This document shows positions 11,453 through 55,675 of a stretch of 64,000 nucleotides of DNA, in pieces. A program made the translations under genes and the position numbers. The notes beneath the pieces are model-generated. The model saw only the letters and a program-made list of their open reading frames with translations. It did not search any database and was not told where the DNA came from. The stretch is taken from sequence record MT446414.1, one strand, 5' to 3'. Position 1 is the stretch's first letter. Each line of letters starts with the position of its first letter. The DNA is from Escherichia virus TH43.

Positions 11453-11724
11453 AAGTTCTTGTTTTTAAGTTAAGTTAATTAGTTTTCTTTTGATTTTAAT
11501 AGAGAATCAAAGTCCTAGGAGTCCTCAACCTAAATCAAGGATTTCCTTAATTCTCTATTTTTATCTCGCAGGTGTCTCCTGCCCTTCGGTACTTGCAAGG
11601 GTTACGATGATTGCCCAATATACAAGCCTGCAATAGCTTTACTAGCTATACCATATATACATTACTACTTACTGTTATCTACTACCAAAAAGGTTATAGT
11701 ATAATAGAACCTTATCTGTATAGG

Positions 11725-11745
11725 TGTAATGTATATAGTATACCA
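11725..11745 (+). promoter_or_regulatory. candidate phage-specific promoter motif (GTGTAATGTATATAGTATACC)
   Basis: best copy of the TAATGTATATA motif, 50 nt upstream of the SSB-like gene. Confidence 0.4.
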
Positions 11746-11794
11746 ACCGCTCAAAGAGAGCAACAATCTTAAATTTATATAAGGAAATATTAAT

Positions 11795-45783: not shown

Positions 45784-46251
45784 TTAACTCTCGTCCGCTT
45801 CCTCCTCCTTTTCAGCGTCCTCAGAGTCCTCTGGAGGTAGCACATCTGCACCTAATGCTCCAGCCAAGAAGTCCTTGATTTGTGCGTTCAATGAATCTTC
45901 ATTAATTACATTCTCTTCCTCAATCTTAATCTCAACAGAAGCTGCCTTCGGATATACCAGATCTGCAACTTTACTTGCAGCCTTGAATCTAAGATCAGGT
46001 GGAATATTTGGATCTTCATAAATTTGAATCAACACTTCATCAGGGGACAGATGACTTGAAGCAACTCGGTCCAACATGAGCTGTGTCAACTTACCTCTAC
46101 TACCTTTGGGTCGTCCGAACTTATTTCCCTTTTGGAACTTCCCTGTGCTTGGCTCCATACCACGGTTTTCCAATTCATCAGTTACACCGGGCAATCTTCC
46201 TGTAACCTCAGCTACCTGTGCAGGCGTGAGTTCTCCTTTTTCTCCAAACAT
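45784..46251 (-). CDS. terminase small subunit candidate
   Basis: small basic/acidic protein directly upstream of TerL with HTH-like GNKFGRPKGSRGKLT. Confidence 0.5.
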   Translation of the reverse strand: MFGEKGELTPAQVAEVTGRLPGVTDELENRGMEPSTGKFQKGNKFGRPKGSRGKLTQLMLDRVASSHLSPDEVLIQIYEDPNIPPDLRFKAASKVADLVYPKAASVEIKIEEENVINEDSLNAQIKDFLAGALGADVLPPEDSEDAEKEEEADES

Positions 46252-46260
46252 CTTATACTC

Positions 46261-46275
46261 CTTCTACATTATCGT
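46261..46275 (-). promoter_or_regulatory. candidate phage-specific promoter motif (minus strand ATAATGTAGAAGGAGTATAAG)
   Basis: TAATGTA motif immediately upstream of the terminase small subunit. Confidence 0.3.
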
Positions 46276-46316: not shown

Positions 46317-47003
46317 TTAATCTACATTACCTACGTGCAGGTTGAACAAAGTCTGGAGAGCTACGGTTTCACCTTCCCAAGTCACTGGAACAGATTTGTC
46401 ATTCTCTACATCAAAAGAAGAGGACGCCAAAAATTTTTTGTATTCTTCAAGCTCGGGGTCCAGAGCTTGTTCACTAGCATGTACCCACGTAACTACTTCA
46501 TTACCTTCTTCATCAATTACTACATTACGTGACCATTGATCTTTTGAATTTAAATAATTATTCAGAGCCTCATACTCGGCTTCTTCAATCATCTCAATCA
46601 TCTCACGGGCATAATCCGGTAGGTGTGCATGTTTGTCAGCTACATACGGAACAACTTCTAAATTGGATGGACACTTACGTTTAACTTCTTTTGCTACAGT
46701 GAAATAGTCTTTCACATCTTTAGCTTCTGTACGAGGAATCAAACCTTCCCATAGTTCACGGGTTGAAGGAGCGTGACCATACACAGAACCATGAGCCAAT
46801 TGTTTTACCATCTCAACTCGGGATTTACCTCCAGTGGTTTCATGAACACGATTCAGATAGAGAGTGTCCTCTGATAAAGGACGGAGATTACCATTGTAAA
46901 CAACCTCACCTTTACATCCCATGTTCTCGTAGATTGCGTTCAGTGTACTAGTTCCTGTCATATTGTTATTCATCATTCTCTCCTTCAGTGTCAGTGTTAT
47001 CAC
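46317..47003 (-). CDS. hypothetical protein
   Basis: ORF track. Confidence 0.5.
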   Translation of the reverse strand: MITLTLKERMMNNNMTGTSTLNAIYENMGCKGEVVYNGNLRPLSEDTLYLNRVHETTGGKSRVEMVKQLAHGSVYGHAPSTRELWEGLIPRTEAKDVKDYFTVAKEVKRKCPSNLEVVPYVADKHAHLPDYAREMIEMIEEAEYEALNNYLNSKDQWSRNVVIDEEGNEVVTWVHASEQALDPELEEYKKFLASSSFDVENDKSVPVTWEGETVALQTLFNLHVGNVD

Positions 47004-47232
47004 TATAACGATAGTCTTTATAAGTCTCAGCTTTGTAGGTTACAAAGCATCTCATGTACAACCAGCCCAATGAACTCAGGTCTATTGTAACATCAAAATC
47101 TTCATCATCGTCTAGGTCTACTAATCTACCCAAACAAGTTATTACTTCAGTGTCCCCAACTTCTTCAACTTTAAATGCACATTTTTCAGTGCGGAAGTAA
47201 GGAATCAACTCTGATAAAAAGTCTAGAATCAT
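46966..47232 (-). CDS. hypothetical protein
   Basis: ORF track. Confidence 0.4.
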   Translation of the reverse strand: MILDFLSELIPYFRTEKCAFKVEEVGDTEVITCLGRLVDLDDDEDFDVTIDLSSLGWLYMRCFVTYKAETYKDYRYSDNTDTEGENDE

Positions 47233-47264
47233 TTTTATATCTCCTCTGATAAACGAGAGTGGCT

Positions 47265-47361
47265 AACCCATAAAGGCGTATTCATCTAAAGGCCCACCCA
47301 TGTATGAACCCATGTACGCTGATGTAAAGGGGACTCTATAAAGGCATACCCATAAAGGCCA
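47265..47361. repeat. cluster of ACCCAT(AAAGGC / GTA) direct repeats
   Basis: ACCCATAAAGGC twice, ACCCATGTA twice, ACCCATGAG once. Confidence 0.5.
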
Positions 47362-47454
47362 TGTCACATTAAGGCCACCTCATACCCATGAGCATGTCTC
47401 CACTCTACTTCATAATCCTCTTCGGTGAAGCTACCGTAGTCTTCTTCAGTCATG

Positions 47455-47646
47455 TTAAGGCCTATCCACCCATTTACTATTCCTCACCTTACCACAGTCT
47501 GCACATCTCCATGTACTCTTGTAATAAGCGTGTAATCGTTCATCACCTCTTGATATCCGGATTGGATAGTACTCGTGATTACATTTGAATTGCTTAACTA
47601 GTAACTTAATCTTCCACATAAAGTTGTTCCTCACTCTTAAATCCAC
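47455..47646 (-). CDS. small zinc-finger protein
   Basis: CNHEY...CADCGK Cys/His pattern. Confidence 0.4.
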   Translation of the reverse strand: MDLRVRNNFMWKIKLLVKQFKCNHEYYPIRISRGDERLHAYYKSTWRCADCGKVRNSKWVDRP

Positions 47647-47819
47647 AACTAACGTTGGGGCATATAGTTATATATAAGGGTTTTAAATTCTGATTTGACC
47701 GAGTGGACCTAGCCCCTCCGAGCGCGTTTCCTAAAAAGGGGGAGTCCTCATTTAAAAAAGGGTTATTACCAATGCAATTGCCTTTAGGAAATCAATCAGC
47801 CTTTAAGCTCTAAGCCTTG

Positions 47820-48395
47820 CCCTACCTGCTATCAGTGGCATGCCTACCCATAAATACCCTACCCATTAATATAAGCCATCTATTTAATACCCATGTATAT
47901 CTAACCAGTGATTTCCTACCCGTATTTCTCTTACTCATATTGAGAAGGGATGAAAGGCTAGACTCTGATGCACTGTTAAGGGGTTATAATAAGAGGGCTA
48001 ATAGTAAGGGCTATTATAGTAAGGTTAGTGATGGTAACACCATGCAATTATATCAATCCTCACACTACCCCACGTTTAATAGTAATAACCTATGTTAATG
48101 TTTCATGAGTGGATTATTGATGTATGTATCATTAGACTGGAAGTAATAACTTTCTTTTATTATTCTCTTTTAATCTTTTCTTTTTCAGCGTGCTGTTGGT
48201 CTTTTTCTTTTGTTGTTTGAGTAAATTATTTGACTGGTAATTAACTCCCGCATGGTCTGGTCTGTCATCTGTAACTAACTTACATTATACCCTACCCGTT
48301 TCCCCTTCCTCGTTAGGCTTCTTACCCATTGGCTAACCTATGCGGCACGTTCTACCCATCTGTCGTTGCCGTTGGTCTGCTACCCGTTCTATAAG
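47820..48395. repeat. dispersed YTACCC(A/G)T repeats plus TAAG(A/G)GGCTA direct repeats in ORF-free region
   Basis: about 8 CTACCC(A/G)T copies; AATAAGAGGGCTAATAGTAAGGGCTATTATAGTAAGG at 47981-48020. Confidence 0.5.
48100..48240. other. AT-rich segment (candidate DNA-unwinding element)
   Basis: long AT-rich stretch between repeat clusters. Confidence 0.3.
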
Positions 48396-48504
48396 TGTTA
48401 TAAAGTAACATTCTGTTAGTAAGCTGTACCTCTGAGTAAGAAAGTTTAGTAAATTAAATTCCTTTTAGATTCAATGAGTTATGAAATAGTTTGAAAATAA
48501 GTGG

Positions 48505-48532
48505 TTGACATGTTTTTCCTTTAATATATAGT
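48505..48532 (+). promoter_or_regulatory. sigma70-type promoter (TTGACA-16-TATAGT)
   Basis: consensus -35 and near-consensus -10; ~40 nt upstream of gene at 48571. Confidence 0.6.
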
Positions 48533-48570
48533 TGCGACTGTAGTTCACATCAACCGAAAGGATTAATGAA

Positions 48571-49434
48571 ATGTCAAAGTTAGCAATTAAATACTTGAAT
48601 CAGGCAAATGATGTACTTTCTCTGTTAGGTCTTTCCGTTGGTGTGCCTTCTCAATGGATGGATAACCAGCAAGCTCGTACCAGCTTTAAAAACTCTGTCA
48701 TTCTGGCTTGTCTTATCATAGATTCCGCTGCGAACGCCTTACAGTGTGAAGATGAGCAGTCAATGAAAGAGAATGGTTTTACAGATATGCAAGATGCTAT
48801 CAACTGTTACATTCAGGCTAATTTAGATAGTTGGACTCAGAATGATTGGCCTGAATCTTGCCGCGATGTTAACGCAGTATTATCCCGCTTGTCTGCTATG
48901 GTTGAAGCTGTTCAGAACAAGAAGAAGAAAGATAGCAAGCCTTCTATTGCAAGTAAGATTATGAAGTCTGTCAACCTTGCAAGTTATGCACTGGTTGCAG
49001 CTATCGGTGTCAGTGCTATCGCTCCCAATGTGCAGGCAAAAGACTCTCTTTCTACTGGTCTGCAATCCTTTGTTAGCACGTTTAAGAATGCTCCTGATAT
49101 GGCTTGCCGTGACGTTGGCAGTGATGGTAATGATTCATTCTGGAAGGTGCATTTTAACTCTGTAACCGTAAAAGATGTGCGTGTCACTCTTACCCCGTTA
49201 GGTGAGAAATCAGGCATTCAGTCGGTTATTAATTTAAAGCGTGCTGACAGTGATCATGATATGGTTACTTATTCTCTATATCAGAAGATTGAGAAAGAGA
49301 AATTACAGTTTGTAACTAATCTCGTTAGTTATGGTGATGTGAGTGAAACTGTACTCGCTACCACTGCTTACAATGACGGTGTAGCAGTTTATACAACCTT
49401 TATTAACTTTGCTAATTGCGAGGCTATCCAGTGA
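48571..49434 (+). CDS. hypothetical membrane protein (one TM helix)
   Basis: RBS AAAGGA; TM segment LASYALVAAIGVSAIAP. Confidence 0.5.
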   Translation: MSKLAIKYLNQANDVLSLLGLSVGVPSQWMDNQQARTSFKNSVILACLIIDSAANALQCEDEQSMKENGFTDMQDAINCYIQANLDSWTQNDWPESCRDVNAVLSRLSAMVEAVQNKKKKDSKPSIASKIMKSVNLASYALVAAIGVSAIAPNVQAKDSLSTGLQSFVSTFKNAPDMACRDVGSDGNDSFWKVHFNSVTVKDVRVTLTPLGEKSGIQSVINLKRADSDHDMVTYSLYQKIEKEKLQFVTNLVSYGDVSETVLATTAYNDGVAVYTTFINFANCEAIQ

Positions 49435-55168: not shown

Positions 55169-55369
55169 TTCATAGGTGCCAAGATTGACAAACTAAATTC
55201 CCTTATAAATCACCTACTTATGATTTTCTCTGCAAAAAGTGGTAGTGATTCGGAACCAGAGGTAATGACTGTATATAGACCTCTGAAAATTATTGATAGA
55301 AATTAAGTTTAGAAATAATAAATTCTAAATAATATTTCTTATAATATCTTACTTTAAGAGGATAAAGAT

Positions 55370-55675
55370 ATGACTTTAGAGGTTTATAAGCTCCTTCTCG
55401 TACTCACTGTAACGATTTCTACTCTAGGATTTATTGCTTTAAGTAATAAGTCAGCAAGCTGGAAGCGTCGTTATGAGTTCCTTCTTAAGCAAGAGGAAGT
55501 CTTTAATGCTGATATTCGTTCCAAGTTGGTCAAGATGCAGGAGCAAATTGAAGCACGTAATGATCGTTTGGCTTCTTTGGGTTGGGAGATTAAGCGTATT
55601 CAAGATCTCAATAAGCAACTCACTGAAGAAATTAAACGCCAGAATGAGGAAACAGAGGATGCGCTCAAGGGTTAA
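55370..55675 (+). CDS. membrane-anchored coiled-coil protein
   Basis: N-terminal TM helix; coiled-coil C-terminus. Confidence 0.5.
   Translation: MTLEVYKLLLVLTVTISTLGFIALSNKSASWKRRYEFLLKQEEVFNADIRSKLVKMQEQIEARNDRLASLGWEIKRIQDLNKQLTEEIKRQNEETEDALKG

Follow-up and report, generated by a model that had tools for sequence, protein, structure and literature searches.

A one-strand heptamer array within and around the terminal repeat at the genome-end junction of a phiEco32-group coliphage

Introduction

Between a minus-strand gene starting at 47232 and a plus-strand gene starting at 48571, the DNA of Escherichia virus TH43 (record MT446414.1) holds a repeat-rich interval of 1,338 bp, which raises the question of what such a region does at this point of the genome. 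All coordinates refer to the window, that is, the whole stretch of 64,000 nucleotides that was analysed, and the interval examined corresponds to positions 47233-48570. The preliminary description of this DNA favoured a replication origin, with iteron-like copies of ACCCAT next to an AT-rich segment, and kept packaging or terminal-repeat sequences as its fallback. The comparison with related phages places a direct terminal repeat (DTR) in the interval, which is the genome-end (concatemer) junction by homology, and reveals an oriented array of short motifs that fills and flanks this repeat. A role of the array in concatemer processing and packaging is proposed, at even chances, and is weighed here against the alternatives.

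Identity of the phage and position of the junction

All 97 records matched by blastn among the deposited phage genomes come from phages of Escherichia or Shigella, and those that were examined belong without exception to the Kuravirus/Suseptimavirus group (phiEco32, Gordonclarkvirinae). The closest relatives found in this way are Bas88, TH34 and TH42, with identities of 87-90%. Relative to phiEco32, the window is reverse-complemented and circularly permuted: the left-end genes gp1-gp7 of phiEco32 are minus-strand genes of the window, and the right-end gene gp128 is the open reading frame (ORF) at 48571. Linear records of relatives start or end within the interval in seven cases.

By sequence homology, the window is thus derived from a Gordonclarkvirinae coliphage, a Suseptimavirus-like podovirus of the phiEco32/Kuravirus group, whose linear genome was assembled as a circle across the concatemer junction. 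A protein-based scan of IMG/VR for further relatives returned none, and a DNA-pattern scan returned only phiEco32 and one other contig.

The direct terminal repeat and its boundaries

The terminal repeat is already known for the phiEco32 group. In phiEco32 it was mapped by restriction and primer walking, as later papers report, while SU10 was mapped by the drop-off of 454 reads and YF01 by full-length nanopore reads. The corresponding features of the window are the following:

47711-47959 (no strand): direct terminal repeat, 249 bp, by homology with the phiEco32 DTR and the NC-B duplication
47709-47718 (plus strand): left DTR boundary, CT^AGCCCCTC, boundary between 47710 and 47711; inverted copy of the right boundary
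47952-47961 (minus strand): right DTR boundary, GAAAGGCT^AG on the plus strand and CT^AGCCTTTC on the minus strand, boundary between 47959 and 47960
47730-47762 (no strand): DTR core, CCTAAAAAGGGGGAGTCCTCATTTAAAAAAGGG, the most conserved part of the repeat

The phiEco32 DTR comprises 193 bp, the same sequence being present at both ends of its record. In the alignment, its position 193 falls on window position 47711 and its position 1 on 47959, with 92% identity between 47711-47760 and the phiEco32 end (blastn, MAFFT). The record of phage NC-B, a member of the window's clade, carries 250 bp duplicated at both ends, which correspond exactly to 47711-47959, and the records of SU7 and HC-25922 start at window position 47959. 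Furthermore, the repeat lies between the homologs of gp1 and gp128, the same genomic position as in phiEco32. By homology with the mapped phiEco32 ends, combined with NC-B, 47711-47959 is the direct terminal repeat. Only a single copy is contained in the window, which agrees with the circular assembly of a repeat-ended genome.

The sequence CTAGCCYYTC occurs just twice in 64 kb, once on each strand, precisely at the two boundaries of the repeat, and CTAGCC or CTAGGC is retained there in most relatives. Directly to the right of 47961, homology among close relatives drops off. The DTR core is invariant across all of the relatives compared and contains the internal repeat CCCTTTTTTA, which has been described for SU10. 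In comparison with the repeats of phiEco32, SU10, YF01 and Paul, the window's DTR is homologous, sharing the core GGGGGAGTCCTCATTTAAAAAA, the boundaries AGCC...GGCT and the position between gp1 and gp128. The Kuravirus repeats are shorter (192-193 bp, against 249 bp in the window's clade), the difference being due to about 56 extra bp inside the longer version.

A structural signal at the cut sites was also considered. No G-quadruplex was predicted on either strand of the DTR in three lineages, and the folding energies at both boundaries, calculated as a hairpin check, equal those of shuffled sequences; G-quadruplexes and hairpins at the cut sites thus found no support and were rejected.

The fallback of the preliminary description, packaging or terminal-repeat sequences, proved to be the sound part of it: the interval contains a homolog of the mapped phiEco32 DTR with both boundaries conserved, and the linear records of several relatives begin or end inside it. 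That description had also named, as grounds against itself, physical ends and an origin elsewhere and repeats that are not conserved in relatives; for the ends and the repeats the outcome is the opposite, the ends mapping here by homology and the repeats being conserved. In practical terms, this indicates where the genome ends to be annotated probably lie and would explain the inconsistent record starts of the relatives.

The heptamer arrays

Within the interval, ACCC[AG]T is present in 14 copies on the plus strand and in none on the minus strand. The expectation from the rest of the window is 0.61 per strand (Poisson P = 6e-15), and the maximum reached in 5000 first-order Markov simulations was five copies. 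The earlier count of at least 13 copies of ACCCAT or CTACCC(A/G)T is therefore borne out, all on one strand and far above chance, as are the longer examples that accompanied it, ACCCATAAAGGC being found twice and ACCCATGTA three times. The longer form TACCCRT is present in 29 copies in the whole window (8.9 expected), 10 of which lie in the interval. The copies are arranged in three clusters:

47263-47390 (plus strand): cluster A, left of the DTR, five ACCCAT copies (47266, 47296, 47308, 47348, 47384)
47845-47924 (plus strand): cluster B, inside the DTR, four heptamers of the CTACCC(A/G)T type (47846, 47861, 47889, 47918)
within the conserved block 48227-48400 (plus strand): cluster C, four heptamers (48294, 48324, 48354, 48382) spaced by 30, 30 and 28 bp

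The distance of the cluster B copies from the boundary at 47959 is 36-114 bp, and from that at 47711 it is 135-213 bp. In cluster A, the ACCCAT copies are interspersed with eight T(A/T)AAGG(C/G) units, and a sixth copy, at 47468, falls within the coding sequence of the gp1 homolog, extending the span of this cluster to 47266-47468. The number of cluster A copies differs among relatives through unit-sized indels, which account for its mean pairwise identity of only 0.70. Read on the minus strand, 47263-47460 shows a recurring unit, CCTTAATGTGA...CCTTTATGGGT, of which phiEco32 has two copies (446, 628). The cluster A sequence TAATGTGA agrees with the phage-sigma element tAATGTAtA at six of eight positions, at a place for which no promoter is reported.

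The array was compared in 17 junctions (the window, phiEco32 and 15 other phages) and, in addition, in phage 4E8. Across the 17, [ACT]CCC[AG]T occurs 10-16 times on the strand that corresponds to the window's plus strand and 0-2 times on the other. Four copies are placed within the repeat, at +95, +108, +122 and +151 in the 193-bp repeats and at +135, +150, +178 and +207 in the 249-bp repeats. To the right of the repeat, 2-4 copies follow at a distance of about 280-420 bp, roughly 30 bp apart, and their number is three or four in all of the junctions except those of Bas91 and Bas93; to the left, at least two copies are found in the compared junctions. Phage 4E8, with an annotated repeat of 206 bp, carries six copies inside the repeat and another four on the right side of it, none of them reversed.

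The sequence of the heptamer depends on the lineage. It is TACCCAT in the window's clade and TCCCCGT(G) in Kuravirus, a difference that extends to the copies inside the repeat, while Bas93 carries TTCCCGTG or ATCCCGTG (TTCCCGT type) in both cluster B and cluster C. The copy closest to the right edge of each cluster is (C)TACCCGT in nearly all of the junctions. When clusters B and C are pooled in the window's clade, 54 of 56 heptamer columns are invariant, in contrast to 128 of 156 spacer columns (Fisher P = 0.007). The interval thus contains an oriented and conserved heptamer array in three clusters, which changes in concert between lineages.

In five Kuravirus genomes (172-1, NJ01, MN03, Bas93 and PE006), the first early gene and its promoter have been swapped for an unrelated module, and homology breaks directly to the right of the last cluster C heptamer, at about 48390. 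Since cluster C is kept when the promoter and first gene are replaced, it belongs with the genome-end module and not with the promoter. The breaks at the edge of the terminal module look like a recombination hotspot, judging from the alignments. In Bas86 and BS3, the homology break is located at about 48545.

No description of the oriented arrays, of their concerted lineage-specific variants or of the inverted boundary sequence was found in the searchable literature.

A proposed role in packaging

A T7-type mode of packaging has already been proposed for the phiEco32/Kuravirus group. It is proposed here that the heptamers could be cis-acting protein-binding sites for concatemer processing and packaging, a reading based on sequence and analogy to which we would give even chances. 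One sequence-specific protein would bind the heptamers and mark the junction on replicated concatemers. The candidates for this reader are the small terminase, or a small early protein such as the gp1 homolog:

45784-46251 (minus strand): small-terminase candidate, gp6 homolog, the gene upstream of TerL; assigned by position and a published match
47455-47619 (minus strand): phiEco32 gp1 homolog, 54 residues with a CxH...CxxC motif (zinc-ribbon-like); phrog_7696, E = 1e-11

The reader would position the terminase for two cuts at the inverted CT^AGCC boundaries, and the stretch between the cuts would be copied, so that each packaged genome receives the repeat at both ends, as in T7. On the right side of the repeat, the T-rich block and the promoter zone, which is AT-rich, would act as spacer, bending or promoter DNA rather than as an unwinding element.

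The geometry of the array fits what has been reported for small-terminase recognition, with repeated sub-sites near the cut (cluster B). Small terminases are reported to make multiple contacts flanking the cut in SPP1, and repetitive cos sub-sites have been suggested for gpNu1 of lambda. As with the R-sites of lambda cosB and pacL/pacR of SPP1, several short repeats are found within about 40-210 bp of the cut site, an arrangement that suits a multimeric small terminase. However, those systems produce cohesive or headful ends rather than direct terminal repeats, and the binding is a prediction in the present case.

The closest parallel is found in T7. The T7 junction, rebuilt from its record, contains CTAAAG 13 times on one strand and never on the reverse, with two copies left of the 160-bp repeat, three within it and eight on the right, spanning -106 to +332 relative to the repeat start; phiOL and the early promoters A1-A3 come next. 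The order is the same as in the window (array, repeat with copies, array, early promoter), the strand counts are similar (14/0 for ACCCRT, 13/0 for CTAAAG), and the larger array separates the repeat from the first early promoters. In T7 the copies are more closely packed, with a spacing of 13-25 bp, and the motifs, CCTAAAG and TACCCRT, are dissimilar in sequence. As the phage families are also unrelated, the T7 arrays represent an analogue and not a homolog. Moreover, transcription in Kuraviruses relies on the RNA polymerase of the host together with a phage sigma factor, and the link between polymerase pausing and packaging in T7 is therefore not simply transferable. Still, the arrays fill and flank the terminal repeat much as in T7, which makes a packaging signal likelier than an origin.

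The T7 arrays are said to have been named SRL and SRR by Dunn and Studier in 1983; they have reportedly been known since that year, with their role unsettled. The way in which terminases locate a short direct terminal repeat and duplicate it is poorly understood, even for T7. The heptamer arrays extend this T7-type feature to a second, unrelated podovirus group and provide a second genetically tractable system, since E. coli K-12 in which the O-antigen has been restored is a host for the BASEL phages Bas86-93.

Several observations weigh against the packaging proposal. The T7 arrays themselves are not known to have a settled function. Between lineages with different heptamers, the small-terminase candidate keeps an identity of 91-99%; covariation between the two was therefore rejected, and the protein, were it the reader, would have to recognise the CCC(A/G)T core that the variants have in common. 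Its fold was not confirmed either, the single-sequence AlphaFold model reaching a predicted local distance difference test (pLDDT) score of 53 and the sequence and profile searches of PDB returning nothing. Gene conversion between the repeats could produce the concerted change without any protein reader. Cluster A may not belong with clusters B and C, from which it is possibly separate because it is indel-variable and partly coding. Finally, the DTR boundaries reported within the window's clade conflict: 250 bp in NC-B, 53 bp in SU7 and 275 bp in PAS59.

The assignment of the candidate gene as a PaP3-like small terminase comes from the YF01 paper, in which the gene upstream of TerL gave an HHpred match. 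The 53-bp repeat of SU7, obtained by PhageTerm, corresponds to 47907-47959; its authors remark on its unusual shortness, and the YF01 paper describes it as 'cautioned by the authors'. The PAS59 repeat is annotated as 275 bp in the record and corresponds to 47893-48172, shifted rightwards, by a method that its paper leaves undescribed.

Three records of the clade show further peculiarities. NC-B annotates 194 bp at its right end although 250 bp are actually duplicated, and the SU7 and UKE3 records overlap by only 53-54 bp (47904/47907-47959). A boundary near 47893-47907 (CCCATGTATAT) is common to three of the conflicting records; it may reflect another hotspot of read starts, a nick or an artefact.

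A broader version of the proposal can be formulated, although it is rather unlikely. T7-style packaging would generally use one-orientation heptamer arrays as a cis-element, which Autographiviridae and Gordonclarkvirinae would have acquired independently of each other, and a dedicated reader would place both of the staggered cuts at the inverted CT^AGCC, defining the length of the repeat. In this phage group, the reader could be gp1 instead of the small terminase, co-evolving with the heptamer. The gp1 protein does differ between lineages with different heptamers, but only two groups are involved, so this carries no evidential weight.

The non-coding leader right of the repeat

To the right of the DTR lies a non-coding leader of about 610 bp, with the sigma-70 promoter for the first early gene at its far end. 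It consists of the following parts:

47960-48099 (no strand): hypervariable spacer, mean pairwise identity 0.64 among close relatives
48105-48129 (no strand): conserved block of 25 bp, ATGAGTGGATTATTGATGTATGTAT, identity 0.94 among close relatives
48140-48226 (plus strand): T-rich (pyrimidine-strand) block, variable in sequence, always ending in the conserved CTTTTTCAGCGT (48181-48191)
48227-48400 (plus strand): conserved block with cluster C and GGTCT(G) copies at 48254, 48259 and 48374
48505-48532 (plus strand): predicted sigma-70 early promoter of the gp128 homolog (start 48571), TTGACA-16-TATAGT, 11 of 12 consensus positions

The direct repeat AATAAGAGGGCTAATAGTAAGGGCTATTATAGTAAGG, listed in the preliminary description, is present at 47988, but it falls within the hypervariable spacer, and of six close relatives just one retains it. 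The spacer's direct repeats AATAAGAGGGCTAATAGTAAGGGC... at 47988-48024 (AATAAGAGGGCTAATAGTAAGG) are common only with BS3. A Kuravirus block, TGAGTGCAATAATGATRTATGTATTAATTAAGTGGAT, is related to the 25-bp conserved block.

The AT-rich stretch noticed earlier is real, with a GC content of 0.32-0.33 and a duplex stability among the least stable 1-2% of the window, and its 59% of T in 90 bp at 48152 is the strongest single-base strand bias of the 64 kb. It is not, however, the stability minimum, since the intergenic sites at 55287 and 11647 are less stable. The GGTCTG-type copies, of which three had been listed, fared similarly: GGTCT is found four times on the plus strand (48198, 48254, 48259, 48374), but the enrichment is marginal (P = 0.04). 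The GGTCT(G) elements adjoining cluster C are each preceded by T, giving TGGTC, and Kuravirus conserves them as GTGGTCTG and GTTGGTCTGCTACCCGT. TGGTC is the sequence recognised by the gp4 primase of T7.

Alternative explanations

The replication origin preferred in the preliminary description would make the cluster C heptamers initiator iterons, the T-rich/AT-rich DNA the site of unwinding and GGTCTG/TGGTC possible primase starts. Four repeats in the same orientation, at intervals of 28-30 bp and within a block that is conserved throughout the subfamily, are indeed reminiscent of the direct repeats near an AT-rich block in lambda ori or plasmid oriV, and the AT-rich, strand-asymmetric block lies 70-150 bp away. 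TGGTC beside the heptamers resembles the T7 primase site, and T7 phiOL and phiOR, which adjoin the terminal arrays, reportedly act as secondary origins; no origin mapping for this phage group was found in the searchable literature. Nevertheless, the heptamer also fills the terminal repeat and its far side, a distribution that a junction signal needs and an origin does not. The conserved unit of 7-8 bp is much shorter and more widely spaced than tandem iterons of 17-22 bp, and the spacers diverge between lineages. No initiator domain was recognised in the 15 flanking and replication-block ORFs scanned; many ORFs have no assigned function, and about 12 kb of the genome lies outside the window. 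The GC skew switches only where gene orientation switches; being confounded with it, the skew gives no independent origin signal and was rejected as an origin marker. The AT-rich block is variable in sequence and two sites of the window are less stable, while the GGTCT enrichment is marginal. Unit size, initiator scan, skew and stability lend no support to an iteron origin, which we consider unlikely.

Control of early transcription or of DNA entry would place the heptamers as binding sites of an early phage protein or a host factor, or as pause sites for RNA polymerase, acting on the gp128 and gp1 promoters or on the stepwise entry of the first ~800 bp. The strong early promoter at 48505 does have cluster C at 120-210 bp on its upstream side, with the T-rich block further upstream, and the promoters face outward on either side of the repeat. 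The T7 arrays, too, are situated between the genome end and promoters A1-A3, and gp1, a small early protein encoded beside the arrays, varies with the heptamer lineage. Yet cluster C is unchanged in the several Kuravirus genomes in which the promoter and first early gene were swapped, half of the copies are remote from the promoters, within the terminal repeat or on its far side, and the phage-sigma promoter element is absent from the junction, all of which render this explanation decidedly unlikely. A lack of any sequence-specific function, the copies having arisen through slippage or gene conversion in the non-coding DNA close to recombinogenic ends, seems very improbable. Cluster A copy number does shift by unit-sized indels, the adjacent spacer has lineage-specific, unconserved direct repeats, and gene conversion would also give concerted change. 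Against this stand a strand bias that is absolute or nearly so in 18 genomes, a copy number and spacing kept across lineages that share little other sequence there, and heptamer columns significantly more conserved than the spacers.

The two least stable and most AT-rich stretches of the window are 11640-11790 and 55287-55370. The former contains two exact phage-sigma elements TAATGTATA on opposite strands (11656, minus; 11727, plus), and the latter is followed by a small ORF at about 55371. A site of unwinding could be postulated at either of them with equal justification.

Genes and promoters around the junction

The minus-strand side of the interval contains coding sequence and a putative promoter:

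46966-47232 (minus strand): phiEco32 gp4 homolog, 88 residues, phrog_12698, E = 8e-42; left flank of the junction
47385-47454 (minus strand): gp3 remnant, a 23-codon acidic ORF MTEEDYGSFTEEDYEVEWRHAHGY that matches the C-terminal part of phiEco32 gp3 by homology
47664-47700 (minus strand): putative sigma-70 promoter of gp1, conserved block TTATATATAAG..TTTAAAATT..TTGACC

The interval is not ORF-free, as had been assumed, since it holds the 54-codon gp1 homolog and the 23-codon gp3 remnant, both on the minus strand. The gp1 homolog, the first gene inside the genome end, is conserved in 13 phages with genus-specific substitutions, and base changes in the DNA alignment fall mostly at every third position. 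The gp3 remnant is missing from the closest relatives, and the gp4 homolog is carried as an annotated coding sequence in Bas88 and PAS59.

Neither did the description of the minus-strand genes as a late block hold, given that the abutting genes are not known late genes. In phiEco32, gp1-gp5 lie upstream of P6, the first late promoter of the phage sigma factor, and their SU10 counterparts have been described as probably early. The genes abutting the junction are probably early. As for promoters, a potential sigma-70 promoter named by the SU10 authors, the 'upstream region of CDS1', is homologous to 47664-47700, a block conserved in both genera, and the SU10 early promoter 'upstream of CDS125', before its last gene, is homologous to 48505-48532. 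The predicted promoters point outward on both sides of the terminal repeat.

A search of the junction for the phage-sigma (gp36) promoter TAATGTATA with at most one mismatch gave no hit, save for the -10 region of the sigma-70 promoter. Phage-sigma promoters in the junction were thus rejected, the nearest candidates being at 46263 and 46321 on the minus strand, upstream of the terminase genes. These are two TAATGTAGA elements (46263-46271 and 46321-46329, minus strand) located upstream of the small-terminase candidate. Their counterparts are P6 of phiEco32 and the SU10 late promoter 'between CDS3 and CDS4'. From their position, late transcription would start about 1 kb to the left of the interval. 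A non-coding RNA was also rejected, the Rfam search of the interval giving no match at E <= 1.

The junction of Salmonella phage 7-11 was dropped from the comparison as too divergent, comprising 2.8 kb with other repeats. It is devoid of ACCCRT/CCCCGT arrays and has motifs of its own, TACACTGA in four copies and CACACG in six, but it retains a CTTTTCAGTGT element resembling the window's CTTTTTCAGCGT.

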